Source: Fimbriimonadaceae bacterium (lineage in GTDB: Bacteria > Armatimonadota > Fimbriimonadia > Fimbriimonadales > Fimbriimonadaceae). From it: DNA of 64,000 nt. The stretch is from the NCBI GenBank assembly GCA_019638675.1, contig JAHBTE010000001.1, forward strand, positions 278,605 to 342,604. The letters run 5' to 3'. Positions within the stretch are counted from its first letter, which is position 1, and each line of letters begins with the position of its first letter. The translations under genes and the position numbers were made by a program. Below the pieces are notes generated by a model. That model did no database searches, was not told where the DNA came from, and saw nothing but the letters and a program-made list of their open reading frames with translations. Below are positions 12,360-48,075 of the stretch, piece after piece.

Positions 12360-12367
12360 TCGAAAGA

Positions 12368-12685: not shown

Positions 12686-12793
12686 GCTGTAAGTCTAGCA
12701 CTAGCCGCTGAACTGTGGATTGGATTAATTGCATAGCGTAGGATATTCCCGACCCGCTTCATCACTCGGGTAAAACCATGATTCGTTATCGGA

Positions 12794-15297: not shown

Positions 15298-15301
15298 CCG
15301 A

Positions 15302-19477: not shown

Positions 19478-19552
19478 TGCCGCTTAGCTCAGTGGTAGAG
19501 CAGCTGACTGTTAATCAGCGGGTCGTAGGTTCGAATCCTACAGCGGCAGCCA
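19478..19552 (+). tRNA. tRNA-Asn(GTT): tRNA-Asn (anticodon GTT), CCA encoded
   Basis: Manual cloverleaf: acceptor TGCCGCT/AGCGGCA, D arm GCTC-AGTGGTA-GAGC, anticodon arm GCTGA-CTGTTAA-TCAGC, variable GGGTC, T arm GTAGG-TTCGAAT-CCTAC, discriminator G, CCA. 75 nt. Confidence 0.95.
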
Positions 19553-19559
19553 CTAATTT
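19507..19559 (+). repeat. Direct repeat copy 1 (attL-like): 3' half of tRNA-Asn plus 7 nt of flank
   Basis: 53 nt ACTGTTAATCAGCGGGTCGTAGGTTCGAATCCTACAGCGGCAGCCACTAATTT, identical to 40435-40487. Confidence 0.9.
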
Positions 19560-19607
19560 CAACCTAAATCAGTGTTGATTTGAGAATTTTCTCACTTTAA
19601 TTTATCG

Positions 19608-19633
19608 TTCGTACAACAACGCGTACAACAACC
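19608..19633 (+). repeat. GTTCGTACAACAAC-GC-GTACAACAACC motif (boundary-associated repeat, copy 1)
   Basis: Tandem GTACAACAAC decamer 56 nt past the tRNA-Asn 3' end. A 25-nt identical copy lies at 40305-40329, a 13/14 match at 48076-48089, and TACAACAACC at 40541-40550. Confidence 0.8.
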
Positions 19634-19800
19634 CCGCCAACATCTGAAGATACTTCAGCCTGCTTTCGAATCTCGCAACCTCTAGCTACTCCGATTCGCC
19701 GGGTACATTTAGTTGGCGAAAGACCAACACTCGTCGTTGCTGCTTGGCGGCGGTTATCCCGGTTGGCGCAAAATTTGAAAGGAAAACCTAAGCGAAGATA

Positions 19801-20025
19801 ATGCCCCGAATATTTGATAATATCGACCTGCCCTTCTTGCCCGCACTTGAAGAAATGCTCAAAACGGGTTACCGGGCAGACTTTTGCGTGGGTTTCTTTA
19901 ACCTCCGAGGCTGGAACCGATTAGGTTCAGCCGTAGAGGAAACATTTACGGGAAATCCTGAAAGCCAATGCAGATTGCTCGTCGGCATGCAACGGTTGCC
20001 CGAAGACGAGGTGATCATTAGCTGA
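19801..20025 (+). pseudogene. N-terminal fragment (74 codons) of a PLD-domain/SNF2-type helicase-family gene
   Basis: [41 protein letters not shown]...[14 protein letters not shown] resembles the N-terminus of about 1000-aa PLD-nuclease/helicase proteins. The reading frame stops after 74 aa. Confidence 0.5.
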
Positions 20026-20429
20026 TGCCCGACTTGATCGAATTCGAAGTCGATGGCCAGCCACCTCTTAAAGGCGAAGCCTTGTCCCTGATGAACGCAA
20101 AGCATAAGCAGTTGAATCGAGTGGTCGCACTACTCTCAGCCGTTCAGAGGTTGAAGTCATCGAACAGTAACAACGGCTTTGGGAGTCACCTGATCCGCTT
20201 AGAAGTTGAAGTCCGATGCACAACCCTTCCACCCAAGGGTGACGCAACAAATTATCTCGGCGGAATCGGTGACATCTTGCAAGCACAAAAACCCCAGGGC
20301 AGTGATCATCTTGGGGAACTAGCGGGACTTAGCCTGTTCGACGATGATCGGCAAATCGTCGAGATTGCTTTTCGTGCGACCCTGAGCGAGGCAGATTCTT
20401 ACACAGTCCGACTGTCCCGCATTGATTGA
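20025..20429 (+). CDS. Hypothetical protein, possibly RusA-like endodeoxyribonuclease fold
   Basis: 134 aa. GDATNYLGGIGDILQ ... LFDDDRQIVEIAF parallels the RusA D-x-DN-x3-K-x3-D-x-L ... DD-x-Q-V pattern. TGATG start/stop overlap with the fragment upstream. Confidence 0.35.
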   Translation: MPDLIEFEVDGQPPLKGEALSLMNAKHKQLNRVVALLSAVQRLKSSNSNNGFGSHLIRLEVEVRCTTLPPKGDATNYLGGIGDILQAQKPQGSDHLGELAGLSLFDDDRQIVEIAFRATLSEADSYTVRLSRID

Positions 20430-20626
20430 CTACACGCCATCCCCTAGCCATCCAGGAGCCGTAGAATGGCTTCAGCAACCACCGACACATCTTTGTCAAG
20501 GCGGTTGAGATACCCGTGACCATCCGCCGCAACACACTCGAAGGTTTGCCTGTCGCGCCCTAAAGGGGCAAAGGTGATCCTATTCGCTTGACCTGGCTCC
20601 GTGTGCGATCGAGAAACTACATGGGT

Positions 20627-21061
20627 TCACTCATGTTTGAGTAAACCGATCCCAAGCAACAGAAATATCTTTGCCATCTCAAGTGCGATATACATCAGAT
20701 GGATACTGCTACCTGAAACCGGCTCGCGCGCTATTATTGCCAACGTTCGCGCGTCAATCACTGGCATAACAACCAACCACTGAATTGCAAAGATGATAAT
20801 TGGGATAATGGCGACAGCCCGTCGCTTACCGCTATCAAGAAAAAAACTCGGTATCAAAGCAGCGCAGAGAATAGCTTCTGCGATCCCAATCGAGTGGAAA
20901 GTCGCGCGTCCGACCTCAAGCGCGGAAGTCAGAGGCAAACTTGCCACCTGGAATTTCGCCATGGTGGCAATCAAGTTCCCTCCAACACATATCCCCACCC
21001 AAATTAGCGCAATCCGGCTGGCAAATCCATAGTTCCTAATGCTCTTGGCCACTATGATCAA
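20627..21061 (-). CDS. Integral membrane protein (about 4 TM), function unknown
   Basis: 144 aa, hydrophobic throughout. Overlaps the 3' end of the truncated-haemoglobin gene by 26 nt. Confidence 0.5.
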   Translation of the reverse strand: MIIVAKSIRNYGFASRIALIWVGICVGGNLIATMAKFQVASLPLTSALEVGRATFHSIGIAEAILCAALIPSFFLDSGKRRAVAIIPIIIFAIQWLVVMPVIDARTLAIIAREPVSGSSIHLMYIALEMAKIFLLLGIGLLKHE

Positions 21062-21485
21062 GTTCCACTACAGACTCTAACCGGGTTGCTATCCGTTTTG
21101 CATTCTCCATAAACGCCTCAGTAACCTCCGCTGAAGGAGCCAAATCAATCAGTGTTTTCTCAAACAAACTCAGCCAGTGCGTAAAATCGCCCGGACGAAC
21201 CCCCACTAGCTTTTGATGCGCAGGGACAGGTCTCCCAGAATAAGTATTCGATTTCAAAATGATCGTTGACCAAAAAGTCTTCATCTTTGCTAAATGCGGA
21301 TCCCAATTGTCGCCAATTTCTTGATCGAAAATTGGCCCAAGCCGCTCATCCGCACGAATCCGTTGATAGAAAGTTTCGACCAACTCCGAAATGAATTCTT
21401 CAGAAACGCCAATATCAACCATTGAGGCTATGTGTGCCTCCCGCTTAGACTGAACCATATGCAAATCAATCAAATCTGCCATCAA
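21036..21485 (-). CDS. Group III truncated haemoglobin
   Basis: 149 aa. FISELVETFYQRIRADERLGPIF ... WDPHLAKMKTFWSTIILKSNTYSGRPVPAHQKL matches the trHb group III (Ctb-like) pattern. Confidence 0.7.
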   Translation of the reverse strand: MMADLIDLHMVQSKREAHIASMVDIGVSEEFISELVETFYQRIRADERLGPIFDQEIGDNWDPHLAKMKTFWSTIILKSNTYSGRPVPAHQKLVGVRPGDFTHWLSLFEKTLIDLAPSAEVTEAFMENAKRIATRLESVVELDHSGQEH

Positions 21486-21674
21486 AATTTCGCTCCATTG
21501 CTCGAATAGGCCCGTGTATGACCCCGATCGAACCGCGAGCGAAATTCAATCGCAGTTTTGAGCGAAATCTTTATCTGATCAAATGCCGGACTAACTGCAC
21601 TTATTGGGGGGGCTGGACTGATTACCATGGGATTGTTCTTCATAGTAAGAATGATTCACTTTGTCAACGCAAGC

Positions 21675-21690
21675 TATGATCAAGGTCATA
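21675..21690. promoter_or_regulatory. Candidate Crp/Fnr-family box TATGA-TCAAGG-TCATA
   Basis: 5+5 dyad containing the TGA-N6-TCA core, 20 nt upstream of the ATG at 21711, in the divergent trHb/crp intergenic region. Confidence 0.3.
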
Positions 21691-21710
21691 CTTCAGACAG
21701 GGTTTTCAAA

Positions 21711-22415
21711 ATGAGCGAAGCAAATATACTGACTGCAAACGAAATCCTGCGCTGTAGCACGCTTTTGGGTTCACTCAATGACCAAGAAGTCACCGAACTC
21801 GCAATCCACTCAAAAATGGTGCGAGTGGCAAGATCCGAAGTCATTTGGAACCGTGGTGACAAACTGGATTATTTCGCAATAATCGGTACCGGATTCGTAA
21901 AGATGGTTCAGTCCACTCCAACAGGGCAAGAATTAACAAACGAAGTGATGGGTCCAGGAAATGCCTTTGGCCTTCTTGGTACCCTGGATGGCAAAGGATG
22001 TCCACTAACGGCCAAAGCCGTGTGCGATTCAGTTATTCTTCGAGTACCAAAAGCTGAATTCCTATCCGTATACCATTCAAACATAATCCTAATGGAAAAC
22101 ATTACGTCGGCTGCCACCCGTCGCATTCGCGAGACCCAGGATCTCATAAAATTCTTCGCCACCGGAAAGGTCGAGGAGCGAATCTCGGCCATTCTCCTTA
22201 CACTAGCTGACTCTTATGGTAAATCGCAAAACGGTCACCTCGTTATCACAGTCCCTCTCACGCGCCAAGACATCTCAGAAATGACCGGGACAACCGTAGA
22301 AAGCACGATCCGAACGATGAGTAGAATGCAGAAGAACGGAATCATCTCCACCGAAAAGAAGTACGTCATAGTCAAAAATCTCGACGCACTTAAAGCCCTG
22401 CTAAGTCAAATCTAA
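21711..22415 (+). CDS. Crp/Fnr family transcriptional regulator (no N-terminal Fnr Cys cluster)
   Basis: The track ORF starts at 21627. The MSEANIL Met at 21711 gives a typical length. cNMP-binding-like beta-roll then C-terminal HTH (LTRQDISEMTGTTVESTIRTMSRM). Confidence 0.8.
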   Translation: MSEANILTANEILRCSTLLGSLNDQEVTELAIHSKMVRVARSEVIWNRGDKLDYFAIIGTGFVKMVQSTPTGQELTNEVMGPGNAFGLLGTLDGKGCPLTAKAVCDSVILRVPKAEFLSVYHSNIILMENITSAATRRIRETQDLIKFFATGKVEERISAILLTLADSYGKSQNGHLVITVPLTRQDISEMTGTTVESTIRTMSRMQKNGIISTEKKYVIVKNLDALKALLSQI

Positions 22416-23107
22416 GATCGATTTAACACTTGTTCAACTAAACAATCGACACACTGCAACGTAATCATTCGGTTCTTTGTCTGTACCCAACCGGCTCTTT
22501 CCCACTTGCTGAGCGTTCGAATAGTAGTCTCAACGGTCGTATGTGAAATCTCCGCAATTTCGCGTCGCGTAAGCGGAATCTTCAGTGCAATCCGACCTCC
22601 ACTTTCTACTCCATAGCGTGAACCACACTCAAGTAAGGCGGAAAGTATCCGTTGATCGACTCGAGCGTAACCGCTTTGAGTGATTGAGCGATATGCCTGC
22701 GATAAATGTGTTGCTAACATCTCCGCAACAACTTTCAAAAACCCCGAATCCCCTCGTAATAGTTCAGCCACGACGGGTGTAGGAATTTTTATCGCTATCC
22801 CGTCCGAAATCGCCTGCGCTGATAGCTTATATGTAGATTGTTCATGAACTCCCAGCAATCCTAACATTTCTCCCGGACCAAGCACGGCAACGGTAACCGT
22901 ATCAGATTCACCAAACTGGCGCACCTGCTGTACAAAGCCATTAAGTACAATGTAAACGGCATCTCGCTCTTGACCCTGCGTGTAGAGTTTTTGTTTTCTT
23001 CTAAATTCGATGACCGTGCATTCGCGTGCAAGCAAGTCCCTTTCAAACTGGGAAATCTCACCAAACGGAGCAGTCCACAACCAATCATCCAGAACATTCG
23101 GTGTCAC
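22412..23107 (-). CDS. Crp/Fnr family transcriptional regulator
   Basis: 231 aa. Effector domain plus HTH LTRREIAEISHTTVETTIRTLSKW. Last gene of the long minus-strand moa-narB transcription unit. Confidence 0.8.
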   Translation of the reverse strand: MTPNVLDDWLWTAPFGEISQFERDLLARECTVIEFRRKQKLYTQGQERDAVYIVLNGFVQQVRQFGESDTVTVAVLGPGEMLGLLGVHEQSTYKLSAQAISDGIAIKIPTPVVAELLRGDSGFLKVVAEMLATHLSQAYRSITQSGYARVDQRILSALLECGSRYGVESGGRIALKIPLTRREIAEISHTTVETTIRTLSKWERAGWVQTKNRMITLQCVDCLVEQVLNRS

Positions 23108-23118
23108 ATTGCACCCAC

Positions 23119-25311
23119 TTATTCGGGGGTCGTATCCGGGCCATCAGCTCGCGAAATCTTGACAACAGATTTCTTGAATTCCGGAATCTTACTGACCGGG
23201 TCTAAGAATCTCCCCGTCATATTGTTCGCAGCTTTCTTGCCTGGCCAGTGATACGGAATAAAAACAGTATCAGGGCGAATTGTTGTCACTACCTTAGCTT
23301 GCAAAGTAACTTTGCCTCGGCGGCTCTCCACGCACATCCAGTTTTTATCCTTAATCCCATACTCCTCCGCCAATGTCGGGTGAATTTCCACATAAGGCTC
23401 CTCACAAAGATCAAGTAATCCCCCTAAGCGGCGTGTCTGGGTGCCACTTAAATAATGCATAACAACCCGTCCCGTTGTAAGAATCACCGGATATTCCTCA
23501 TCCGGTTCCTCCGCTGATGGTCGATACGGTGTGGGGTTAAAAACAGCTCGCCCATCCGGTTTTGAAAACTTCAAATCTTCAAACAATCGCGGTGTCCCCG
23601 GGTGACCAATTTCAGGGCACGGCCAGAAAACACCAAACTCATCCTCAATGCGCTTATAAGTGATCCCGTAATAATCCGCCGTTCCCCCTTTACTGGCAAC
23701 CCGCAGTTCATTGAAAATATCCTCACTGCTCTCATACTGGAAAAACTCCCCGCGCCCCAAACGCTTTGCTAGCTCAAGGAAAATCTTGGTGTCCTCCATT
23801 GCTTTACCCGGAGGGGTTACCGCTTGCCGAATCCGAATAACTCGCCCTTCTGCACTCGTACTCGTCCCTTCTTCTTCTTCGTGCAACGAACCTGCCATAA
23901 CGATGTCCGCGTGGTGAGCTGTCTCGCTTAAAAAAAAGTCAATCACCGTGTAATGTTCAAGCTTCGAAAGTGCTTCTCGCGTGTAATTTGAATCCGGCAA
24001 CGAAACCACGGGGTTAAAGCAAATCGAAATGAGCGCCTTTATCACTCCCTCATGGATCAAGTTCATGATCTCCTGCGCGCTATGCCCTTTAACCGGCATC
24101 TCAGATTCAGGGATGCCCCAAACATCAGCAATATATTGACGATGTTCTGGGTTCTCAATATCACGATTACCCGGAAGCTGATCGCACTTATGACCATGCT
24201 CGCGTCCCCCTTGTCCATTCCCCTGACCAGTAATCGTGCCGTAGCCGCAACCAGGACGACCAATTCTCCCCGTTGCCAAAACTAAATTGATACACGAAAC
24301 GACGTTGTCAACCCCTTTCGTCTGATGCTCAATCCCTCGGGCGTGAAGCAAAAAGCTCGTCTTCGCCTCGCCCCACATCTTCGCGGCTTTAACAATGTCA
24401 TCAACATGGACACCACAAATCCGGCTCGCCTCTTCCAGCGTCGTTGCCATCGCAACCGCCTTCGTTTCTTCCCACCCATTTGTATGATCCTGAATAAATT
24501 CCTCGTTGACCATTCCCTCTTCAATCAGCACGCGGAGCATCGCCGTCATTAGTGCTGAATCCGTTCCTGGTCGCACCGGAAGATGTAAATCACAAGTCCG
24601 GGCAAGCGGGGTCACCCTTGGATCAATCATGATCAGCTTCGCCCCCCGATCCCTCGCCCGCCAAATGTAATCGGTCGTAATCGGACTGCACTCCGCCACA
24701 TTCGTCCCCGTACACAAAATCACATCTGCTAAAACAATATCGTCCCAATAATTCGCCGCCCGATCAATTCCAAACGCCTTCTTGTTACCCGCCCCCGCAC
24801 TGACCATACAAAGCCGACCATTATAGTCAAGCTCTTTTGTTTGCAACGCAACACGTGCAAATTTCCCGACCAAATAACTCTTCTCGTTCGTCAAAGAGAC
24901 ACCAGATAGAATTGCCACCGCATCCTTCCCGTACTTCTCCTGAACCCGCTTAATCTCGCTGACCGTTGTCGAGAACGCTTCCTCCCACTCAATCGGGACA
25001 AACCCTTTTCCCTTAACCCTCTTTAACGGAGAAAGCAACCGATCCGGGTGATTGTTCTGCATATAGCGTTTAACCCCTTTCGGACACAATTTCCCTTCAT
25101 TAAACGGGAACTCTTCCCACGGCTCAAACCCAATGACCCGGTTGTCTTTAACCTTCAACTGAATCCCGCACTGCTGACCGCAAAAACAACAATGAGTCTT
25201 CACCAATTTATCGGGTTCCCCACGGCCCCGCCAACCACCAGCAGGTTCATCATTTCGGTGCGGACCAAACTTCTCGATCAACTCACTAACGGATACCGGG
25301 GGCTTTGCCAT
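23119..25311 (-). CDS. narB: Assimilatory-type (NarB/NasA-like) molybdopterin nitrate reductase, cytoplasmic
   Basis: 730 aa. N-terminal 4Fe-4S motif CCFCGQQCGIQLKV...KLCPKG, bis-MGD oxidoreductase body, no twin-arginine signal. Confidence 0.8.
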   Translation of the reverse strand: MAKPPVSVSELIEKFGPHRNDEPAGGWRGRGEPDKLVKTHCCFCGQQCGIQLKVKDNRVIGFEPWEEFPFNEGKLCPKGVKRYMQNNHPDRLLSPLKRVKGKGFVPIEWEEAFSTTVSEIKRVQEKYGKDAVAILSGVSLTNEKSYLVGKFARVALQTKELDYNGRLCMVSAGAGNKKAFGIDRAANYWDDIVLADVILCTGTNVAECSPITTDYIWRARDRGAKLIMIDPRVTPLARTCDLHLPVRPGTDSALMTAMLRVLIEEGMVNEEFIQDHTNGWEETKAVAMATTLEEASRICGVHVDDIVKAAKMWGEAKTSFLLHARGIEHQTKGVDNVVSCINLVLATGRIGRPGCGYGTITGQGNGQGGREHGHKCDQLPGNRDIENPEHRQYIADVWGIPESEMPVKGHSAQEIMNLIHEGVIKALISICFNPVVSLPDSNYTREALSKLEHYTVIDFFLSETAHHADIVMAGSLHEEEEGTSTSAEGRVIRIRQAVTPPGKAMEDTKIFLELAKRLGRGEFFQYESSEDIFNELRVASKGGTADYYGITYKRIEDEFGVFWPCPEIGHPGTPRLFEDLKFSKPDGRAVFNPTPYRPSAEEPDEEYPVILTTGRVVMHYLSGTQTRRLGGLLDLCEEPYVEIHPTLAEEYGIKDKNWMCVESRRGKVTLQAKVVTTIRPDTVFIPYHWPGKKAANNMTGRFLDPVSKIPEFKKSVVKISRADGPDTTPE

Positions 25312-25371
25312 TAATTAATTCTATGCCGCCCCACAGCCCAAAACTATGATGTTGATCATACATTTGATCGC

Positions 25372-26100
25372 TTAAATCAGCAACTTGACCGCCGCCGTAA
25401 CCAGCACGCACCCAAGCGCATAACGGATCCAAATGGGAGCCATCTTTTTCGCCCCAACATAGCTCCCCACCACCGACCCCACCACACAAACCAAGATCAT
25501 CCATCCTACTCCCGGCGCAAAACTCAATGTGTCCACATTCCACCGCCCAACCAAACCGGCGCATGAGTTAGCAAAGATAAAAATGGAACTCACCGCTGCC
25601 GTTTGTTTAGGGTCAGCCCACCTCAACAACAGCAAGACTGGGCTCAAAAATATCCCGCCACCAACCCCAACCATTCCCGATAAAAAACCAATTCCCCCTC
25701 CAATCAAAGTCGCTTTCCAAACCACTGGCTCCCTCGTATCTTCGGCACTCTTCGGTTTCCAAAACAACCGCCCCGCCGCAAGCAAAAGAACAACTCCCAA
25801 CAACAGTGAGTAGAACTCGGGTTTGAGTTTAAGAGTCGCTCCTAAATAGGAAAGGGGAATGGCCGAAACCAAAAATGGCCAAGTCAACGACCAAGAAAAG
25901 TTCTTCGCATGAGCATAAAAAGCAAAAGAAATCCCCGCTACAAATAGGTTCAACATCAAAGATGTCGATGCAATCGCCTCAGCACCTATTGTCGTCAACG
26001 ATAGAACTGCCAAATACCCCGAAGCTCCCCCATGCCCCACCATCGAGTAAAGCACCGCAACCAATAATAAGCCAAGTAAAACGACCGATGAATCAGGCAT
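25372..26100 (-). CDS. TauE/SafE family anion (sulfite-type) exporter
   Basis: 242 aa, multi-TM, internally duplicated Gly-rich helices (MVGHGGASG / MVGVGGGIF) typical of the TauE/SafE family. Confidence 0.65.
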   Translation of the reverse strand: MPDSSVVLLGLLLVAVLYSMVGHGGASGYLAVLSLTTIGAEAIASTSLMLNLFVAGISFAFYAHAKNFSWSLTWPFLVSAIPLSYLGATLKLKPEFYSLLLGVVLLLAAGRLFWKPKSAEDTREPVVWKATLIGGGIGFLSGMVGVGGGIFLSPVLLLLRWADPKQTAAVSSIFIFANSCAGLVGRWNVDTLSFAPGVGWMILVCVVGSVVGSYVGAKKMAPIWIRYALGCVLVTAAVKLLI

Positions 26101-27544: not shown

Positions 27545-27546
27545 AG

Positions 27547-27810
27547 CTAACCCCCCGAGACCGGAGGAATAAAGACCACGTGATCGCCAGCCGCAACCAC
27601 GTAATCTCGGTCAACAAAATTCGAATTCACAGCATATTGAATAAATCGCCCCGCTACGTCAAACTTATGTTTGCGGGCCAGCATCTGATAAACCTCGAAA
27701 ACCGAACAACTCACCAAAGCAACTTTCTCCTCCGCCATCCCAGCCTGATCGCGCAGACTCGCAAAATAGCTCACTCTAATCTCAACTTTGTCCATCACTT
27801 CAAGCTCCAA
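27547..27810 (-). CDS. moaD: Molybdopterin synthase sulfur-carrier subunit MoaD
   Basis: 87 aa, ubiquitin-like, ends in the diagnostic C-terminal Gly-Gly (IPPVSGG). Confidence 0.85.
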   Translation of the reverse strand: MELEVMDKVEIRVSYFASLRDQAGMAEEKVALVSCSVFEVYQMLARKHKFDVAGRFIQYAVNSNFVDRDYVVAAGDHVVFIPPVSGG

Positions 27811-30940: not shown

Positions 30941-30966
30941 AGAACTTATCTTTCAAATGCAAAAGG

Positions 30967-32463: not shown

Positions 32464-32505
32464 CCGCCATCATAGTCCTGTAGTTCAGTCCGGGCAAGAA
32501 TTCTA

Positions 32506-33867
32506 TTGCAGGTTGCAAAGAGAATCGCAATGACTGAAATTAACGAAACTAACAAACATTCAACAACAATGGATCAATGGAATCCAGAAGATGTTGATCA
32601 ATGGGAGGCAAGCGGAAAACCACTGGCCTGGAGAACGCTATGGATTACAACGTTCTGTCTCATTCTGAGCTTTACCACGTGGTTCATGGTGAGTGCAATG
32701 GTAGTCAAATTATCTGGAATTGGATTCAAATTTGAAACCCAACAGCTTTTCTGGCTCACCGCCATGCCCGGCCTCGCCGCCGGAACCCTCCGTATAATTC
32801 ACACCTTCTTAATCCCCATCTTTGGCACCCGTAAAACGATAACTGCTTCAACAATCCTATTGCTTATCCCTGCCCTTGGATGGGGGTTTGCAGTAATGAA
32901 TCCGGCAACCTCATACACAACATTTCTCACCCTTGCATTCCTCGCCGGGCTCGGGGGCGGAAACTTCAGCTCCTTCATGCCAAGCACCTCGCTCTTCTTC
33001 CCCAAAAAGAAGCAAGGAACTGCTCTCGGTATCCAAGCGGGAATCGGGAATTTCGGTGTCAGCCTTGTCCAATTCCTGACGCCAGCCATGCTCGGGCTTG
33101 CTCTCTACGGCGGAAGCCAAACATTCGATGACAAAAACGGTACCGTCGAAATTCACCTCCAAAACGCCGCCTTTATATGGGTGCCGTTCATTATTATTGG
33201 CGCAATTGCCGCATGGTTCGGGCTCAAATCCGTCCCCGTCAAAGCGAACTTCAAACAGCAACTCGATATCTTCAAGAACCGCGATACATGGCTCATGACA
33301 TCACTATACGTGATGACATTCGGATCATTCAGTGGGTTTGCCGCCGCGTTCCCAACCATGATTGGCAAAATGTTCGGCGGATTCGAAAACGCCCCCGAAC
33401 CTCTCAAGTTTGCATTCCTTGGCCCCTTGATCGGGGCCGCAATCCGTGCCCTCGCTGGGCCTGTATGCGATAAAGTAGGCGGCGGAAAAGTCACAACATT
33501 TGCCGCCCTCGGCCTCGTTGGATGTACCTTCGCCGCGACCGCTTTTACAAACCCCACCTCAATGGCAGCGTGGCCCGGATTCCTTGGTTGTATGCTCGGC
33601 ATCTTCTTCTTCAGCGGAGTTGGAAACGCCAGTACATTTAAACAAATGCCGATGATTTTCCCGCCACGGCAAGCTGGTGGAGTCATTGGATGGACATCCG
33701 CAATCGCCGCCTACGGCCCGTTCCTATTTGCAGTCCCGATCGGAACTCTCATCGCAAAACAAGGCCATCCAACCATGTTCTTCATGATTGCAGGTTGCTT
33801 CTTTGTAATCAACCTCTTCATTAACTACTGGTTCTACGCCCGCAAAAATGCCCCGACCCCATGCTAA
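32506..33867 (+). CDS. narK: MFS nitrate/nitrite porter (NarK family, second paralogue)
   Basis: 453 aa. NNP signatures GLAAGTLRIIHTFLIPIFGTRK and GIQAGIGNFG / GVIGWTSAIAAYGPF. Confidence 0.8.
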   Translation: MQVAKRIAMTEINETNKHSTTMDQWNPEDVDQWEASGKPLAWRTLWITTFCLILSFTTWFMVSAMVVKLSGIGFKFETQQLFWLTAMPGLAAGTLRIIHTFLIPIFGTRKTITASTILLLIPALGWGFAVMNPATSYTTFLTLAFLAGLGGGNFSSFMPSTSLFFPKKKQGTALGIQAGIGNFGVSLVQFLTPAMLGLALYGGSQTFDDKNGTVEIHLQNAAFIWVPFIIIGAIAAWFGLKSVPVKANFKQQLDIFKNRDTWLMTSLYVMTFGSFSGFAAAFPTMIGKMFGGFENAPEPLKFAFLGPLIGAAIRALAGPVCDKVGGGKVTTFAALGLVGCTFAATAFTNPTSMAAWPGFLGCMLGIFFFSGVGNASTFKQMPMIFPPRQAGGVIGWTSAIAAYGPFLFAVPIGTLIAKQGHPTMFFMIAGCFFVINLFINYWFYARKNAPTPC

Positions 33868-33892
33868 AGAATCGATAGCACTCTAAACAGTA

Positions 33893-33926
33893 AGTATCCT
33901 CGACCTAAAAGCCGGGGATACTTTTT
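33893..33926 (+). terminator. Candidate intrinsic terminator after narK2
   Basis: Stem AGTATCC (33893-33899) / GGATACT (33916-33922) followed by TTTT. The loop is long (16 nt) and contains the stop of the convergent decarboxylase gene. Confidence 0.4.
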
Positions 33927-35887
33927 GACACCAACTGATTTGCTGTCCTAAACAGGTGCTCCACAAACTCTGCTAAGTAATACCGACCATGCTTTTTGGC
34001 TTGCACATACCACGGATTCATCACAACACTCCTGAGAAGAAAGACACCCTCACGCTCGTAATCCTCCGCAGTAACCCCGAGCTTTTCCAAAAAGGCCTCC
34101 AGTGCATCAGGTGCGTAGCGATTTTTTGAAAGCTGGGTTCGGCTCACAAAGAACTCTTGACTATAAACCGGCCGAGCATTGTCAATATCAATACTCAGAG
34201 CCTTGTAAATCGCTCGGTTCAATTGATTAATTGAACCGAGCGATGATACCGATTTACCTCGAAACGCAAAGCAAACAATTGTCGATGAAGGTTGACATAA
34301 TGGTACCGCAACTACATCTCCTGCTAACTCGAGCCCATTCATATGCTCAAGCAGGGCATGCAGTTCGCAAGCATCCCGAACCGTCTGTTGCATCAACCCG
34401 CCATGACCAGAGGTGTCAAGCGGAATCAACTTGTGCGACAGCCATACACTCGCCGCCGTTGCTCCCGGACGGCTCCCTTCCAGTAAATAATGCCCCACTC
34501 CCTCATCCGCAAGTATTTCACCCGGCGAAGAATGATTCTCACCAATATAAGGCGCTGACTGGTTCAACAACAACTTGATCGCCTCGTTTCGGTAGCAGAT
34601 TGCCCCTGCTGCGTAAGGAACATAACCGAGCTTATGCGGATCAATCGTCACCGAGTCCGCCTCCTGCATCGCCACTAGCGCATCACACGCTATTCCCGTC
34701 GGCAAGTTCAAAGTTAGCTCAACGTCTTCTCCGCCAATCCTCGTCGTCGTGTGCGGATCACCCAAACCAATCCGGTTCGGAGTTACCATCGAACGCAAAT
34801 ACCCACCATAAGCCGCATCGCAATGCACCCAAAACGATTGCCGACCAGCCTGCTCCCGCTTCGCTCGGATCGCCAAAATCTGGTCAATCGGATCAATCGC
34901 CCCCTCCTCCGTAGTCCCAACAATCCCGACTACCGCCAATACGTGATCCCCATCCTGCTCCACCTGATCCAGTGCCGTCTCAAGGTTCTCGGGAATCATT
35001 TTAAAGTGATGATCAACCGGAATCACAACGAGCGATTGATAGCCCAAACCAAGGAGATCCAACGCTTTCCCAACACAGTAATGATGCGCCGCGGAGATCA
35101 AAATCTTAGGCTGAGAACTAATCCGTTGCACCACCGCCCCAATCCCCACCCGAGCAACATTGAAATCAGACTTAATAATCTCCTGGCTCACATCTGCCGC
35201 CGAAAAACCTGAATTCTCTAACTCTGCATAGAGTCTGAGCAATGCGGTCAGTGTGCTTTGAGGGTTAGCCGAGAAAGGTACCGAACCAAAGGGTTCCGGA
35301 GTCATGCCATGGCGCAACCGAATCTCATTAATTGCAAACGCAAAATACTTCAATGACCTCGCCGCCCAAAGAGCTTCAAAGTTGGCCACGGTTCCACCCC
35401 CCGTCAAGTGCCCCCACCCACTTTCTTCAAACCCCAGCATTCTGCATAGCATCTGAATTGCTTCATTCTCCAGCTGAACGGTCACCGGTGCCGCCTCCGA
35501 AGAAACATTATTGGGGTTATAAAGCAGGGCCGCAATCTGCCCGGCAATGCTAGGCAACGACTGCTCGGCAATCATGTGAGCAATGTAGCGTGGACTATGG
35601 AAAGGGCAATCGCCTTTCAAGCGAGCTAACAATTCATTCAACGCATCCGAGAAATCGTCCCGAAACGGCTCACCCGCACGAAGATCCGCCGATCGCACAA
35701 TCTGGCTATCCATCGGGAAATAATTCCGCCGCCAACCATAATAATCCTCCAAAGATTGAACTATCAGCTTCTGGAACCACTCAGCATTTTCTGCCTTTGG
35801 ACCTGCAAACCAAGATGAAAGATGATTACTGTGATGTTCCATAGGATTGAGCCAAGATTTCTTGCAGTTCGTCGGGGGAGTTAGCAC
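33905..35887 (-). CDS. Group II pyridoxal-phosphate-dependent decarboxylase (tyrosine-decarboxylase-like, long form)
   Basis: 660 aa (start possibly Met 35842). GGGTVANFEALWAAR, PLP-lysine motif TIDPHKLGYVP. Confidence 0.7.
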   Translation of the reverse strand: MLTPPTNCKKSWLNPMEHHSNHLSSWFAGPKAENAEWFQKLIVQSLEDYYGWRRNYFPMDSQIVRSADLRAGEPFRDDFSDALNELLARLKGDCPFHSPRYIAHMIAEQSLPSIAGQIAALLYNPNNVSSEAAPVTVQLENEAIQMLCRMLGFEESGWGHLTGGGTVANFEALWAARSLKYFAFAINEIRLRHGMTPEPFGSVPFSANPQSTLTALLRLYAELENSGFSAADVSQEIIKSDFNVARVGIGAVVQRISSQPKILISAAHHYCVGKALDLLGLGYQSLVVIPVDHHFKMIPENLETALDQVEQDGDHVLAVVGIVGTTEEGAIDPIDQILAIRAKREQAGRQSFWVHCDAAYGGYLRSMVTPNRIGLGDPHTTTRIGGEDVELTLNLPTGIACDALVAMQEADSVTIDPHKLGYVPYAAGAICYRNEAIKLLLNQSAPYIGENHSSPGEILADEGVGHYLLEGSRPGATAASVWLSHKLIPLDTSGHGGLMQQTVRDACELHALLEHMNGLELAGDVVAVPLCQPSSTIVCFAFRGKSVSSLGSINQLNRAIYKALSIDIDNARPVYSQEFFVSRTQLSKNRYAPDALEAFLEKLGVTAEDYEREGVFLLRSVVMNPWYVQAKKHGRYYLAEFVEHLFRTANQLVSKSIPGF

Positions 35888-36425
35888 TCCGTAATGTCAG
35901 CAAGTCAATCCCAACATCCTTCAGGTCTGCCTCTGAAACATTCTTGACCCGTAAGTATTCCACCCAGGCCATTAACCTCCGTTCTCCCGACTCAACGAGC
36001 CTGCGAAGCGAATGCCAACTGCTATCCCGGTACAACCCAACAAGCGGTTGCAATCTGCCCCCAATCCTCGGCAAAATCGCATCCACATCCTCACCAATCA
36101 ATCTCCCTAAAACTCCAATAATCGCCGGATCAAACAAAGGCATATCACAACTTAAAACCATCACGGTCGGAGCACACGGTTCAAAGAGTGCCAATGCAGT
36201 CAACGGCCCAGAAAATTCCTCTCGATCCTGCAGGAATCGAGATTCACCCAAAGGTCGCCGACCAATCGTTGTCGCCACATAACCCGCCTCGTTAAGCAAA
36301 TGGATCATCCGGTCGCCCATCGACAGACCATCAACGATCAACGAAGCCTTATCCTCACCCATCCGGCGACTCGCCCCGCCCGTCAAAAGGACGACTTCGA
36401 CGTCATCCAACATAAGGCACGCCAT
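35826..36425 (-). CDS. mobA: Molybdenum cofactor guanylyltransferase MobA
   Basis: 199 aa. N-terminal LLTGGASRRMGEDKA signature. Confidence 0.8.
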   Translation of the reverse strand: MACLMLDDVEVVLLTGGASRRMGEDKASLIVDGLSMGDRMIHLLNEAGYVATTIGRRPLGESRFLQDREEFSGPLTALALFEPCAPTVMVLSCDMPLFDPAIIGVLGRLIGEDVDAILPRIGGRLQPLVGLYRDSSWHSLRRLVESGERRLMAWVEYLRVKNVSEADLKDVGIDLLTLRSANSPDELQEILAQSYGTSQ

Positions 36426-37452
36426 CTATCTCAGATGCTTGATTCAGAGCAATCAGACGCCGCTTTTCTTGCGGACTCAGGTCTTGGTGTGCCCCAAAGT
36501 CCATCCCCACCTCTTTCATGATCACAACTAAATCGTCGTGATGCATCTTCGACTGAAAAGCCTCCCCAGATCGTGGACAAACCGCCTGCTCGCCTTCCCG
36601 ACCTTCTTCCTTGTAATAAGCCACCCCAAGCTGAGCCGGCCGCTGAATCACGTGAAACAACTTCCCGAACGGCATCCACAGCAATAAGACAATGACTGTA
36701 AATGCGTGCAACATTGAAATGAATGAAAAGTGTGAACCGCCCATCAATCGGTAACTCGCCGTTATCATCAATCCCGTAACCGAAACCGCAAAGAGCAAAA
36801 ACAGTGGCATAAAATCGTTCGTAAATGTTTCTACCGACTGCGCCCCATGCTCAAACAATCGCCGGTGCATCGCCATTCCGACTCCAACCAATACGAAAAC
36901 CGCACTGAAATTCAACCCATTGAAAAACAGGAATGCGATCACGCTATCGTGCGGAAAAGACATCATCGGCCTGCCCATAAACTCAACCATGTAGTCAACG
37001 CCATTTGCGCCGACTCCAAACTGAATCCAACCCCAGCTCAGAGGGAAGGTGATCGCAAACGCAATCAAACAACCCCAAGCAAGCGCCATGTGCGCCACCC
37101 AGCGGTTCGTCCCGCGATTTGAAATAAATTTCTGAAGAATGATGTTGTCAAACACCAACTTAACAAGCCGAACCATATTCTTGACTAACTTTCCGGGCCG
37201 CAAGAACAAACGCCACCCAGCTTTGAAATAAACCCAAGTTGCCGGACGCTGAACCCAAGAAACATAACGGTAAGTAATCGCAAACGCCGCCAAAATGGTC
37301 GCCGCCGCATAAGCCGCCAAAGGCGAATCAAACCGGGTCAACCGACCGGAACCAAAGTAAATCGCACCAAGAACCGCTAAGCCCGCCAAGGTCGCCGCAA
37401 TGAACGCTGTCCGTTCAGTGTTACGTGGAAATTGATTCTCACTCATTACCAT
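36403..37452 (-). CDS. NarI/DsrM/HdrE-like membrane di-haem cytochrome b with cytoplasmic C-terminal extension
   Basis: 349 aa, about 5-6 TM. Conserved His in helices (WVAHMALAW, MAMHRRLFEHG, MLHAF) and the family-typical PFGKLFHVIQRP motif. Confidence 0.5.
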   Translation of the reverse strand: MVMSENQFPRNTERTAFIAATLAGLAVLGAIYFGSGRLTRFDSPLAAYAAATILAAFAITYRYVSWVQRPATWVYFKAGWRLFLRPGKLVKNMVRLVKLVFDNIILQKFISNRGTNRWVAHMALAWGCLIAFAITFPLSWGWIQFGVGANGVDYMVEFMGRPMMSFPHDSVIAFLFFNGLNFSAVFVLVGVGMAMHRRLFEHGAQSVETFTNDFMPLFLLFAVSVTGLMITASYRLMGGSHFSFISMLHAFTVIVLLLWMPFGKLFHVIQRPAQLGVAYYKEEGREGEQAVCPRSGEAFQSKMHHDDLVVIMKEVGMDFGAHQDLSPQEKRRLIALNQASEIDGVPYVG

Positions 37453-37762
37453 TCTCCTCCAGCAAATCTTCGATCCAAGAAAGTGCGGCCATCATGTTTG
37501 GAAACCCAATCGTCGTTGTAGTCAACAAAATCGCATGTTTGACTTCTTCCGAAGTCACTCCAGCCGCCATTGCTTTTCGCACATGGCTCCTTAATGCCCC
37601 TTCCATCCGTGCCCCCGCCGAGATTCCAATCTTAACCAACGCCATTTGTTTGGCATCAAGCGGCCCCGCATCATTGATCGCATCCCCCAGTTGACGATAC
37701 GCCGCTCCAATTTGTGGGTTGTCTTCAACAAACCGCAGAAACCTTTGAGGAGGTTGCGTCAC
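37439..37762 (-). CDS. Carboxymuconolactone decarboxylase (CMD/AhpD-like) family protein
   Basis: 107 aa. LVKIGISAGARMEGALRSHVRKAMAAGVTSEEVKHAILLTTTTIGFP is the CMD-domain helix pattern. No CxxC. Confidence 0.6.
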   Translation of the reverse strand: MTQPPQRFLRFVEDNPQIGAAYRQLGDAINDAGPLDAKQMALVKIGISAGARMEGALRSHVRKAMAAGVTSEEVKHAILLTTTTIGFPNMMAALSWIEDLLEENGNE

Positions 37763-37998
37763 AACTGCCGCTCCAGTTTTCTAACCCCGATCAGCATCCA
37801 AATGTTGACTACTAGAATGACAATGCTAAACACAGCCGCAGGGATAGCGGTCGAAGTCTTTCCCGCCAAGATCGATTCCAAAACACTGACAAACAAGTAC
37901 AACTGCAGCAACATCAAGACCGACTGAAAGATCTGCAATCCTGTCAAAACCGAACTCTTTTGCCGCCGTCGTAACCGATCAGTCTGGTTCTGTCTCAC
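37759..37998 (-). CDS. Small two-TM membrane protein
   Basis: 79 aa. Both ends overlap neighbours by 4 nt (translational coupling), which argues it is real. Confidence 0.45.
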   Translation of the reverse strand: MRQNQTDRLRRRQKSSVLTGLQIFQSVLMLLQLYLFVSVLESILAGKTSTAIPAAVFSIVILVVNIWMLIGVRKLERQL

Positions 37999-38495
37999 GA
38001 ATGCGCCTCGTGGAATTTAATCCCAATCGCCCAGATCTCTTCGCCCCTAATTTCAATTTCAATTTGAGGAATCGGATGCGGCGGCGGCCCTTGTAAAACC
38101 GATCCATCTTCTACCGAAAAAGCACCATTGTGACAAGGGCAAAACAGCCGAGAGTTTTTGACCTCATACACTACGGGGCAAGAAAGGTGAGTACACCGCC
38201 GGGCGTAAGCCACATAATTTTTATCCGGCTTCTGGATCAACAAAGCCAAGTCAGTGGCTCGTGGAAAATTGAACGGCAAAGCTGTCCCTGGTTCAATATC
38301 TGATGTCAATGCAATCAGCGTCGGCTCAAAACTTGGCCCTCTTTCTTTGACCGTACTCCAGGCCGCCAACCCCATCGAACCAACCGCGAACGCACCGCTC
38401 GCAAGCGTCCCAAACTTCAAAAACTCGCGTCGAGTCACGTAGTTGTCATCTTCCCAATCCACCGGGAAATTTGAAGTCAGTTTTGTATCCATCAA
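37995..38495 (-). CDS. Rieske [2Fe-2S] protein with twin-arginine (Tat) signal/anchor
   Basis: 166 aa. Consensus Tat motif TRREFLKFG plus hydrophobic stretch. Cluster ligands CTHLSCPV ... CPCHNGAF. Confidence 0.8.
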
Positions 38496-39091
38496 TCAAC
38501 CCTCGCCATTTTCAACATGTCTAATTTTTGAACTTTAGAATTCGTTTTAACTTCTAGCTGCTTCGTGCCGTGCGGCATCATCAGGTGTACTTTCGTCGTT
38601 ACTTTTGTGCCGCCAAAAATGAACTCATTAACGGGCGTGCCACTCCGTTTCTCTGCGATTTCTTCCGGGGTTGCATACATCAGCGCCTGCGAAGGACAAA
38701 CCGTTGCGCACATGGGTTTTTTGCCAACCGACGTGCGGTCATAACACATATCGCACTTAATCATCTGATCGTATGCCGCATGATATTTCGGCACTCCAAA
38801 TGGACAAGCCATAACACAATTCGAACACCCAATACAACGAGGCTTCAACGATGTATGAACAACCCCATCCGGAGTCCGTTTGATCGCATCGGCTGGACAA
38901 ACCGCAGCGCAAGCCGGATCATCGCAATGCATGCAAACAACCGGAGTTGTCTGCACAGTGTCCCCCCGCTGAATTGTCTCCAAGTGGATCATCGAAATGC
39001 CGGCATGAGTATCGCATTCTGCGCAAGCCTCAACGCACGCATTGCATCCAATACACCTGCTGGGATCTATGTAAAACTGGCGCTCACTCAC
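38492..39091 (-). CDS. 4Fe-4S polyferredoxin (DmsB/NrfC/HybA-like electron-transfer subunit), no signal peptide
   Basis: 199 aa. Four Cys groups ([44 protein letters not shown]...CATVCP). Confidence 0.8.
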
Positions 39092-40304
39092 ATCGGCCTC
39101 GTTTCGGCATCATTCAATTCTGCGCCTACCACCCCAACTTTCCTATGACCTACATCATATTCTTTGCACCTTTGCAACGGGATTTCGTTCCGCCAAAAAG
39201 ACATAGATCTTCAACTGAACAAATTCAAGTTGTAACTCTTCGAACAACCGTCGACAGCGTTTGATAGATGCTGAGATGGGAGATCGTTCTTGCAATCTTG
39301 ACCAGTCAATTGCCTGGAAAATATTCGCCTCGCCGACCCGAACAGTCTCTAATCGTTGCCGAGGGGCACAATATCGAAACTTCCACGCGCTCGTTCGGTT
39401 CTTTGGCTATAGTCCTTCCGAACAGGTTTTTCGGCTTGCCTTTTTCGTCCGATTAACCGCGAGATTTGCGAAGAGTCCATCCGCTCGGGCCACCACGTCC
39501 TCCTCGTTCAACGCATGAACTGCCGGAGACAACACGGAACCGCAACCCCTCAGGGCTTCCATCTGGGCCATGCCCATCGACTTCACTTCGACAATGGTTA
39601 CAGATTCCCACGGGCGCATTGCTTTCTCTGCCCATACAACCCGCATAAGTAACAAAATGCTGAAGGCCAGCTTCTTCAAAAACTGACCAACCGAACACGT
39701 AATACACTCGCGTTCTGTCAATGGGTTATGGATCCAGAGCAGGATTAACTCCGCACACCATTTGGTGTAGTCAAAAATTTTAGTCTTGCCGGGTCATCCT
39801 TCACTTGGCTTGGACAGCCACTGTAGCAGAAGTAGTGACTCTAGCTGTAGTGGCCTTGGTCACCACAGGCTTTGTTAGCATCTTCGATAACTGCGGTCAG
39901 AGTGCCTTGTTTATGGGATGGCGTCTCCACTGATTATCTATACTGGACAACGAGGAAGATGAGGAGAACAGTGATCCGCGACCGGGCTTATGGGAATCGC
40001 GGGATTAGGCGGGAGACCATGGTTGAAATGCACTATCTCTGATGAAAATCTTTATGCTGCCTTATTCGATGAACCCACATTGGCGCATTCGCCCTTTTTC
40101 TCGATTTGGCACAGCCAGTTTCCCAGCTATGTATACTACACGGTTTCAGCTGCGTAACCATGCAATTCTTGCGTCAACAAAATCTGCCTAACAAGTCAGC
40201 CGTGCTGATTTGGGTACCAAGCACCAAAGTAGACAGAATTACTCGTGCAGGCCCGAATATTCAGATCACAAAAACTTAAACGACCTCCTCCAATGAATTG
40301 GTTC

Positions 40305-40329
40305 TCGTACAACAACGCGTACAACAACC
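40305..40329 (+). repeat. GTACAACAAC-GC-GTACAACAACC motif, copy 2
   Basis: 25 nt identical to 19609-19633. Lies 105 nt upstream of the 53-bp repeat copy 2. Confidence 0.8.
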
Positions 40330-40434
40330 GCGACGGATTTCAGCGGACGCAGCTGACAAATTGGTGACATCGAATCCGCAATTTTGAACCTAAAACAGCA
40401 CTAAACATCACACCAGCGGACAGTTTCAGGAGTA

Positions 40435-40487
40435 ACTGTTAATCAGCGGGTCGTAGGTTCGAATCCTACAGCGGCAGCCACTAATTT
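40435..40487 (+). repeat. Direct repeat copy 2 (attR-like): orphan 3' half of tRNA-Asn
   Basis: 53/53 identity to 19507-19559. No matching 5' half (no D arm or acceptor 5' strand) upstream, so it is not a functional tRNA. Confidence 0.9.
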
Positions 40488-41429: not shown

Positions 41430-41493
41430 GTTTCCCAACTCAGCGTTCCGTCCTTAATCAAATTTGAGGACATGACAACAACAGGAAATTTCA

Positions 41494-44888: not shown

Positions 44889-44923
44889 TTTGCACGCTAA
44901 GTCTGGTGGTCGGAGAAGAGTAA

Positions 44924-48040: not shown

Positions 48041-48050
48041 TACGGAATCT

Positions 48051-48074: not shown

Positions 48075-48075
48075 A

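Follow-up and report, generated by a model that had tools for sequence, protein, structure and literature searches.

Why, in a Fimbriimonadaceae bacterium, does a block of nitrate-reduction and molybdenum cofactor (Moco) genes lie between an intact tRNA-Asn gene and a second copy of that gene reduced to its 3′ half? We addressed this question in a 64,000-nt window of a Fimbriimonadaceae bacterium contig (the window being the whole stretch of DNA analysed, in whose coordinates positions are given), the host of which is a wastewater member of the Armatimonadota. The segment 19553-40487 is very probably a genomic island (island 1), inserted into the 3′ half of the tRNA-Asn gene by an element of the tyrosine-integrase type. 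The original prediction of site-specific integration at a tRNA 3′ end with metabolic cargo is supported by an exact repeat, by further repeats in the arms beside it and by the contrast in identity between island and flanks. Its picture of a single island holds for island 1 itself, which does not, however, stand alone: it opens a tandem array that extends to 48174.

The tRNA-Asn target and its attachment sites

The integration target, on the side of the left attachment site (attL), is an intact tRNA-Asn(GTT) gene at 19478-19552 on the plus strand, which is called by ARAGORN, matched by Rfam (RF00005, 74.7 bits) and folds into a cloverleaf; the gene is identical in two relatives, CP075366.1 (L001) and the JGI genome (L002). 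The attL core, 53 nt at 19507-19559 on the plus strand, begins 3 nt before the anticodon and consists of the last 46 nt of the tRNA and 7 nt beyond its CCA end. It is repeated exactly and in direct orientation at 40435-40487 (plus), the right attachment site (attR) core of island 1, which doubles as the left att of island 2. A 25-nt sub-pattern of the core has two matches in the window against 0.00 expected (none in 100 shuffles). ARAGORN calls no tRNA at the 40435 copy, the DNA preceding 40435 bears no relation to the 5′ half of the tRNA, and Rfam over the whole window returns three tRNAs and nothing else; ARAGORN, Rfam and the repeat search thus confirm the exact 53-bp direct repeat, without a 5′ half in its second copy, that had been described at the outset. 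The same attR junction recurs in the JGI genome (L006 9916-9963). The intact tRNA gene marks the left end and the directly repeated 3′ part the right end, beyond the cargo, which must accordingly lie inside the inserted DNA.

Integrases that target tRNA genes restore the tRNA gene at attL and leave a partial copy at attR. Here the core spans the anticodon loop through the 3′ part of the tRNA, and therefore the gene is restored at attL and the partial copy stands at attR. From this geometry, and from comparisons with other genomes, we infer that the same mechanism would have acted here, with the crossover probably at the anticodon-loop edge of the core.

Both cores are accompanied by short repeats, on the plus strand, which the original prediction had missed (19609-19636 and 40305-40332), having recognized the core repeat. 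The P′ arm of island 1, found by repeat and motif searches at 19560-19640, starts with AATTT-CAACCTAA and contains two GTACAACAAC units (19611-19620 and 19623-19632), which together make up TCGTACAACAACGCGTACAACAACC at 19609-19636, 58 nt to the right of the CCA. This sequence recurs, 27 of 28 positions being identical, at 40305-40332, within the P arm of island 1 (40287-40434, repeat search), where the two GTACAACAAC units (40307-40316 and 40319-40328) end 106 nt before the core. Within the window the decamer GTACAACAAC is confined to att-proximal places. The spacing is conserved on both sides: on the P′ side it is 58-59 nt after the CCA in island 1, in the P′-like arm of island 2 and in CP075366, which shows the same arm motif at the same 58-nt spacing (L001 11089-11110), and on the P side the repeats stop 106 nt short of the core in the window, in the JGI genome and in the distant Armatimonadota locus L008. 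Indeed, the P arm is 92.6-93.2% identical to that of a kdp-carrying element in these distant Armatimonadota (L008/L009), whose flanks are only 64-68% identical to the window and in which P arm plus core adjoin the kdp operon. Furthermore, metagenome contigs have 40287-40463 in common behind differing upstream DNA. We consider the paired GTACAACAAC repeats candidate arm-type integrase binding sites, given their position and conservation.

Inside the P arm, 40350-40400 resembles a degenerate 3′ half of tRNA-Asn (GCAGCTGAC...TCGAATCC...AATTTTGAACCTAAA). The P arms of L006 and L008 retain this stretch and, because of this conservation, we count it as part of the arm; it may be a fossil, an ancient internal att that was built into it.

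A scan of genome contigs with the arm pattern GTACAACAAYNNRTACAACAAC gave 112 stretches, 80 of which were listed, and the pattern proved too unspecific: among these 80 matches only CP075366 is tied to the present system, and most of the others come from unrelated taxa. The match in an Armatimonadaceae contig (L082) was rejected as a coding Thr-Gly repeat rather than an arm. Likewise, an apparent 'back-joint' at attR in the metagenome set X1 turned out to be a P′ arm of the L001 type matching the repeated motif, with no true junction.

The tRNA-Asn 3′ half occurs a third time, in diverged form, at 48122-48174 (plus), where it forms the right end of the array. It is identical to the core in 39 of 53 positions in register, against a maximum of 34 of 53 in 200 shuffles and 29-31 for the other tRNAs of the window. 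The differences keep the tRNA structure, a T-A pair of the T stem having become C-G by compensatory change and two acceptor pairs having become G-U, and these structure-preserving changes suggest that the third copy derives from a working tRNA allele rather than from decay in place. It is preceded by TCGTACAACGAC (48078-48089) and by the P-proximal motif GATAGTTTCTGAAGTA, the 16 nt immediately to its left, which are similar to those preceding the second copy (GACAGTTTCAGGAGTA). Fainter arm-like motifs occur at 40540 and 48078; the former, TATACAACAAC, 59 nt after the CCA and on the plus strand, is the degenerate P′-like arm of island 2. Directly after the third copy starts the conserved chromosomal flank, which is also present in the JGI genome.

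The interior of island 2 (40488-48121, plus) has a clearly foreign composition, with a GC content of 0.55-0.57 against 0.49 and a tetranucleotide correlation of 0.65; Pfam finds the domains OEP, HlyD_D23 and ACR_tran in its proteins. Across genomes its metal-efflux (czc) segment behaves as an indel exactly at the att junction, being missing there in the JGI genome and replaced by a Cu-ATPase module in the closest strain (L025). The tRNA-Asn gene thus holds a tandem array of two units, island 1 (19553-40487) and island 2 (40488-48174), both without an integrase.

A shared integration hot spot and the spread of island 1

In CP075366.1 the flanks are 87-90% identical to those of the window, and the left flank is the same. 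Behind the tRNA-Asn gene come a P′ arm, a type I restriction-modification (R-M) system, an HTH_17 protein and a tyrosine integrase of 383 aa, and the 120 best matches to NarB include none from the 2.76-Mb contig of this genome. In the JGI genome, with flanks of 76-78% identity, the DNA after tRNA-Asn holds a CRISPR array, Cas9 and copper genes. The relatives called for as a check therefore share the left flank and carry different DNA behind the same tRNA gene, a polymorphism of the site that includes no fully empty state, and the island idea survives this comparison.

The nitrate/Moco block is nevertheless present in the JGI genome, about 63 kb beyond tRNA-Asn and inside the same tRNA-Asn array. 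Its right end is collinear with 39100-40487 of the window, including the arm repeat and the att copy, and it abuts the flank that follows 48174 in the window, with no czc island in between. A block found elsewhere, or without the repeat, had been named as evidence against an island; what the JGI genome offers is the block within this very array, the same right arm and the att copy included.

Sequence identity differs strongly between the island and its surroundings. Between the JGI genome and the window it is 77.3-78.4% in the left flank, 76.2-77.9% in the right flank and 94.5% over 9.97 kb of the island. In the closest strain (L025) it is 91.8-95.0% in the flank and 99.64-99.80% over 12.45 kb of the island; what comes after the island there is a decayed att copy that has lost 22 nt of the T arm, together with a copper ATPase module. 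Contigs of four metagenome runs from four studies (biofilm, sludge and unspecified metagenome) carry the interior from 19999 onwards at more than 99%. As judged from these alignments, such discordance, with the island far above its flanks, is the pattern of recent horizontal spread.

Taken together, tRNA-Asn is an integration hot spot for one family of elements with interchangeable cargo in the Fimbriimonadaceae lineage. In the JGI genome (L002) the CRISPR array of about nine repeats (11180-11770) and a 997-aa Cas9 (11936-14929) stand behind the P′-like start ACTTTTGAACCTAAC, and a type II CRISPR-Cas locus appears to occupy the same hot spot.

A more distant version of the block occurs in L010, with a NarB of 92% amino acid identity and 74% identity in DNA. 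It is bounded at 16060-16110 (minus) by a 3′ fragment (T arm, acceptor and CCA) of a tRNA other than tRNA-Asn; the fragment is followed by AATTTTGAACCTAAAT, the same opening as in the P′ arms, and beyond it lie AAA_13, UvrD and DUF2326 genes of defence-like character.

Loss of the integrase and competing histories

Where, then, is the enzyme that would have inserted island 1? Neither an integrase nor a remnant of one was found in the 64-kb window by tblastn with the CP075366 integrase and its neighbours, or by six-frame Pfam searches of 39092-40434, in keeping with the recombinase loss that the original prediction implied. The gene debris it noted at the left end is a real deletion scar at 19998/19999. 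At 19801-19998 (plus) lies a stub of 66 N-terminal codons of a PLD-domain helicase-related gene, cut by the deletion; tblastn confirms this identity, first proposed in the original prediction, by matches to the N-termini of annotated helicase-related/PLD-domain proteins (60-64% identity, E 1e-21); the open reading frame (ORF) of the stub, 74 codons long, extends 27 nt past 19998 into unrelated sequence that constitutes the last 27 nt of a 110-aa gene.

This gene is carried by L015, which is 99.52% identical to the window over 19999-31482 and unrelated to it left of exactly 19999. One metagenome contig (X6 record 26) is, conversely, identical over 19819-20012 and then diverges. Identity that starts at 19999 in the one and ends at 20012 in the other means that the parental sequences overlap by 14 nt (19999-20012, as placed by the two breakpoints), which looks like microhomology at the deletion junction. 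To the left of the point corresponding to 19999, L015 has the 110-aa gene, followed by genes for an Mrr-like nuclease (PADLOC PDC-S02) and an HTH regulator and by one that is Sie-like/tRNA_anti-like. Beyond these it encodes a tyrosine integrase of 391 aa (phrog_1, E 2e-69), a 339-aa protein, an excisionase-like protein of the AlpA/HTH_17 kind and a type I methyltransferase. The integrase, with the motifs HDLRH...LLGH...Y, is 78% identical to that of CP075366 at tRNA-Asn; the integrases of the relatives have Phage_int_SAM_3 and Phage_integrase domains, and neighbouring proteins of 339, 311 and 287 aa have no family match. The gene order HTH_17 / unknown / integrase / Sie-like is kept in L015 and CP075366. 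These comparisons suggest that an internal deletion in an integrase-bearing element gave rise to the window copy, and that the DNA deleted in its ancestor was probably an integrase module of the L015 type.

Searches for further forms of the element in larger collections returned no match, both for an undeleted parent in a metagenome scan with a 30-mer from the PLD/helicase stub and in viral-contig scans (IMG/VR) with the L015 integrase and the P-arm/core junction as queries; the latter argue against a phage-like element in IMG/VR. A metagenome scan with the Crp protein, directed at the left end of the JGI island copy, found no relative.

We propose the following course of events. The attP of the element would have included a tRNA segment of its own, reaching from the anticodon loop to the 3′ end, and a tyrosine integrase would have recombined this attP (P arm, 53-nt core and P′ arm) with the tRNA-Asn gene. 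A deletion inside the element, at 19998/19999, would have removed the integrase/excisionase module and neighbouring defence genes, leaving both att cores and both arms intact. Further elements entering the tRNA gene or an att copy would build up the tandem array, in which island 2 would lie between island 1, the tRNA-proximal unit, and the original chromosomal flank.

Several observations weigh against this account. No relative has an empty tRNA-Asn site, and the pre-insertion state is thus a reconstruction; neither an excised circle nor an attP or empty-site junction occurs in the assembled contigs of related strains; and the window itself lacks an integrase. In L015 and CP075366 the integrase lies mid-element and not beside the att site, and the seemingly full-length element of L015 could therefore be two fused islands that lost an internal att. 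In strain X2 an att core lies only 3.2 kb to the left of 19999, too little room for an integrase, which makes the original left boundary of the island provisional, and the left ends of the L015 element and of the JGI copy were not recovered. Finally, the GC content of island 1 (0.499) is not distinct from that of the flanks (0.485-0.490). The composition check proposed with the original prediction showed no difference in GC and mild shifts in oligonucleotide and codon usage: tetranucleotide correlations in 4-kb segments are 0.73-0.80 for island 1 against 0.83-0.91, and the correlation of codon frequencies is 0.75 against 0.89 between the two flanks. Such a mild shift fits donors within the same family, since NarB homologues are spread through the Fimbriimonadaceae and Fimbriimonadales.

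The unremarkable GC content and the commonness of NarB homologues across the Fimbriimonadaceae would also suit a vertically inherited chromosomal block whose repeat arose by chance or by partial duplication of the tRNA gene on the spot, a duplication being the alternative that the original prediction had itself raised. We regard this as extremely improbable: an exact repeat of 53 nt is far beyond chance, a local duplication can explain neither the arms beside both copies, which are shared with other elements in other genomes, nor the pattern of identity across genomes (94.5% in the block where the flanks reach 77%), the tetranucleotide and codon profiles are shifted, and the closer relative CP075366 has other DNA after the tRNA and no NarB among the 120 best matches. 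The mid-element integrase raises a different question, namely whether the nitrate block was trapped between att copies when a left island with defence and integrase genes fused with a right island carrying the cargo, the internal junctions being erased by later deletions. The conserved gene order around the integrase in L015 and CP075366, the degenerate tRNA-like stretch at 40350-40400, which could be an old internal att, and the X2 att core 3.2 kb left of 19999 all speak for such a fusion. We nonetheless hold it to be unlikely, as 20 kb of L015 contain neither an att core nor an arm motif, and as the block, still placed between a full tRNA gene and a partial copy flanked by conserved arms, is passed between genomes in one piece; a fusion would, moreover, alter the history of the island and not its nature.

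Island 1, read as the product of tRNA-Asn integration and internal deletion, has lost its integrase and kept attL, attR and both arms; it is therefore non-autonomous and resembles a cis-mobilizable element (CIME), that is, an element that has lost integration and transfer genes and retained attL and attR (PMC5704250). Island 1 fits this definition, and it may still be moved in trans. The original description of it as 'fixed, immobilised' goes beyond the evidence, given its perfect att cores, its intact arms and the near-identical copies in several metagenomes. A stronger version, in which the island is actively cis-mobilizable, by a related integrase for tRNA-Asn supplied in trans, whether encoded elsewhere in the 2.83-Mb genome or brought in by an incoming element, or as part of a composite excised from the outer att sites (accretion-mobilization), is a serious possibility that we hold only tentatively. 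It would account for cores identical in 53 of 53 positions and arm repeats in 27 of 28, for copies of 99.5-99.8% identity in several metagenomes and studies where the host flanks reach only 92-95%, for one integrase family (78% identical) in elements at the same site in relatives, and for a P arm module common to elements with different cargo in the same communities; tandem arrays and the mobilization of CIMEs are documented elsewhere (PMC5704250). Against it stand the missing integrase in the window, the absence of attP or empty-site junctions from the contigs, and the near-identical copies that differ at their ends (a left end of 431 nt versus 3227 nt, and the decayed attR in L025), a pattern that the acquisition of an autonomous parent and its separate decay afterwards explain no less well than a transfer of decayed forms.

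A wider combination of claims appears somewhat unlikely to hold in all its parts at once: a nitrate plug-in circulating in wastewater Armatimonadota, a tRNA-Asn family that swaps its cargo (nitrate/Moco, R-M, CRISPR-Cas9, kdp, copper and czc), integrase-less units still moved in trans or as composites, and an undescribed membrane-coupled nitrate reductase.

How does this array compare with known systems? Arrays that grow as newcomers integrate at an att copy of an element already resident are described for elements related to ICESt1 and ICESt3 of Streptococcus thermophilus (PMC5704250). Like CIMEs, island 1 lacks integration genes, keeps attL and attR and stands in tandem with elements that use the same target; unlike them, it has a tRNA-Asn gene of Armatimonadota as its target rather than fda or a tRNA-Lys gene in Firmicutes, and the elements related to it show neither conjugation nor relaxase genes. 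Its cargo is linked to an integrase and an excisionase in L015, where transfer genes were not seen and the attL end was not recovered. The tycheposons of Prochlorococcus, tyrosine-recombinase elements at tRNA genes with partial tRNA copies and tandem arrays (bioRxiv 10.1101/2020.12.28.424599), share the tRNA integration, the partial copies, the tandem pile-up with decayed remnants and the plug-in metabolic cargo. Their cargo includes a complete nitrate-assimilation cluster (bioRxiv 10.1101/2020.12.28.424599), whereas island 1 has no nitrite reductase and adds the whole Moco pathway and a membrane electron-transfer operon. The phylum and habitat also differ (Fimbriimonadaceae of wastewater and sludge), and no primase/helicase replication module was identified in the present elements, which are likened to tycheposons by architecture and cargo. 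The perchlorate-reduction island PRI (PMC4623255) is likewise a transferred block of a molybdoenzyme with accessory, regulatory and cofactor genes; it has no uniform tRNA att structure, whereas both boundaries are defined to the nucleotide here.

Classical tRNA islands share with island 1 an identity block from the anticodon loop to the tRNA 3′ end, direct repeats and arm repeats on both sides, as well as, in the intact relatives, an AlpA-type excisionase beside the integrase; unlike them, these relatives have the integrase mid-element and the window copy has none. Among the sublocation classes that Williams is said to have distinguished in 2002, a block of identity starting at the anticodon loop is reportedly that of P4/lambda-type tyrosine integrases.

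Cargo genes, regulation and neighbouring features

At the left end of the cargo, next to the deletion junction, an ORF of 134 aa (20025-20429, plus) is called as a gene in every island copy, L015-L021. Its product has no match in Pfam (even with E up to 10), NCBIfam, PHROGs, PADLOC or the sequences of the PDB, and the RusA identity originally suggested for it was dropped, as neither a RusA profile nor a structure-sequence match supports it. There follow a small membrane-protein ORF (20627-21061, minus; from the ORF list and its translation, 115-141 aa in relatives, no Pfam match) and a truncated, bacterial-like globin (21036-21482, minus; Pfam Bac_globin, 23.3 bits against a cut-off of 21), an identical copy of which is encoded on 17 metagenome contigs. 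Two Crp/Fnr-family regulators, both with Pfam cNMP_binding and HTH_Crp_2 domains, lie at 21627-22415 (plus; likely start ATG at 21711, the orthologue in L010 being 234 aa long) and 22412-23107 (minus).

The catalytic subunit of a NarB/NasC-like molybdopterin nitrate reductase is encoded at 23119-25311 (minus; Pfam Molybdop_Fe4S4, Molybdopterin and Molydop_binding) and has no twin-arginine signal. Its best NCBIfam model is NasC, at 839 bits, below the cut-off of 1100 that would make it a NasC/NarB equivalog. Homologues 76-92% identical to it occur throughout the Fimbriimonadaceae and Fimbriimonadales and, on such evidence from sequence, the cargo is typical of the Fimbriimonadaceae and not foreign to the lineage.

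On the minus strand there follow a TauE/SafE-family anion permease (25372-26100, Pfam TauE) and the Moco genes: a MoaE-MoeB fusion (26093-27544, Pfam MoaE and ThiF), MoaD (27547-27810, Pfam ThiS), MoeA (27795-29060, Pfam MoeA_N/MoCF_biosynth/MoeA_C), a MoaC-MoaB/MogA fusion (28987-29916, Pfam MoaC and MoCF_biosynth) and MoaA (29906-30940, Pfam Radical_SAM and Mob_synth_C), to which a MobA-like molybdenum cofactor guanylyltransferase (35826-36425, minus; Pfam NTP_transf_3) is added further on. Two nitrate/nitrite transporters of the NarK family in the MFS superfamily are encoded on the plus strand (30967-32463 and 32506-33867; Pfam MFS_1, NCBIfam TIGR00886 NarK family and NarU). Between the second of these and mobA lies a pyridoxal-phosphate (PLP)-dependent decarboxylase of 660 aa resembling tyrosine decarboxylases (33905-35887, minus; Pfam Pyridoxal_deC and tyr_de_CO2_C, with NCBIfam tyr_de_CO2_Ent below its cut-off), which is missing from the L010 block and split in the JGI copy.

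The last operon, at 36403-39091 on the minus strand, is devoted to electron transfer. According to Pfam and NCBIfam it encodes a 4Fe-4S DmsB-like protein (38492-39091), a Rieske protein with a twin-arginine (TAT) signal (37995-38492), a small membrane protein of the DUF6755 family (37759-37998), a CMD protein (37439-37762) and a NarI/QmoC-like membrane subunit (36403-37452). The 4Fe-4S, Rieske and DUF6755 genes directly follow narB in one operon in L013 (10001-14056) and adjoin it in L014 (6115-12187); the NarI/QmoC-like subunit shares this consistent linkage to the reductase. From this conserved linkage the redox operon is probably the partner of the NarB-like reductase, and NarB with the DmsB-like, TAT-Rieske, DUF6755 and NarI/QmoC-like proteins may constitute an undescribed architecture of a quinol-coupled nitrate reductase; DUF6755 is mentioned by none of the papers in the library that was searched.

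Every item of the cargo list in the original prediction (globin, Crp/Fnr regulators, narB, Moco genes, narK and redox operon) is confirmed by Pfam; the TauE permease and the 660-aa PLP decarboxylase had been left off it. Its statement that the island delivers nitrate use together with the whole cofactor pathway is right about the Moco pathway, which is full, and overstated about nitrate use: Pfam identifies no nitrite reductase domain (NirA/NirBD/NasB) in any island protein and, as NarB also scores below the NasC cut-off, 'nitrate assimilation' is unproven. A dissimilatory reduction of nitrate to nitrite would be as compatible as assimilation with the two NarK transporters, the Fnr-type regulators and the globin.

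Five exact TATGA-N6-TCATA palindromes (at 21675, 25345, 30926, 32459 and 39144) occur in the window, where 0.01 would be expected, and all of them fall within promoter regions of island 1 (span 21675-39159). They are candidate operators of the two Crp/Fnr regulators of the island and probably delimit a private regulon. The cargo as a whole would thus be a self-regulated module for nitrate reduction, comprising the NarB-like reductase, its redox partner operon, NarK, Moco synthesis, the globin and Crp/Fnr regulators with their palindromes.

At the right end, about 1.2 kb (39092-40286, no strand assigned) hold no recognisable gene and are collinear with L006 and L025. In keeping with the lack of intact ORFs first described there, 39092-40434 (about 1.3 kb) has short ORFs only, with no Pfam match in six frames and, by tblastn, no trace of an integrase. 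By eye, 39290-39900 (minus) resembles a third, frameshifted Crp/Fnr gene; tblastn with both island Crp proteins and Pfam gave no support, and the idea was dropped.

Beyond the second att copy, island 2 encodes on the plus strand a small His-rich ORF (41052-41429) and a CzcC/CzcB/CzcA-type RND efflux operon identified by Pfam (41494-42702, 42699-44888 and 44924-48040).

These findings show that Fimbriimonadaceae of wastewater and sludge communities can exchange a whole trait as one unit, with boundaries at nucleotide level. The unit unites a nitrate reductase and its electron-transfer partners with transporters, regulators and their candidate operator sites, and all of the Moco pathway. A capacity to reduce nitrate to nitrite matters for nitrogen removal in such communities. 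Further, the tRNA-Asn hot spot and its element family are documented here in the Armatimonadota, a phylum with hardly any described mobile elements, and an integrase-bearing copy, two differently decayed copies and tandem arrays together form a natural series for the 'fixation' of islands. The kind of element is well known; the value of this one lies in a good example and in its leads, the arm sites and the NarB partner operon, rather than in a new principle.

Outside the array, the left flank at 13720-18398 carries a cluster resembling those for hydroxyproline catabolism, syntenic in all close relatives, with an aldehyde dehydrogenase, an FAD-dependent oxidase of the D-amino-acid type, a proline-racemase-family epimerase and a DHDPS-family enzyme. 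Farther left, a permuted tRNA-like RNA at 10340-10420 (minus) lies about 380 nt upstream of a Ro60/TROVE gene (8377-9963, minus; Pfam TROVE and vWA_Ro60). It has no Rfam match at the gathering threshold; it folds into a T arm, a closed acceptor-like stem and a D arm, has 18 nt in exact agreement with the D arm of tRNA-Asn, and resembles the bacterial Y RNAs of the YrlA type.

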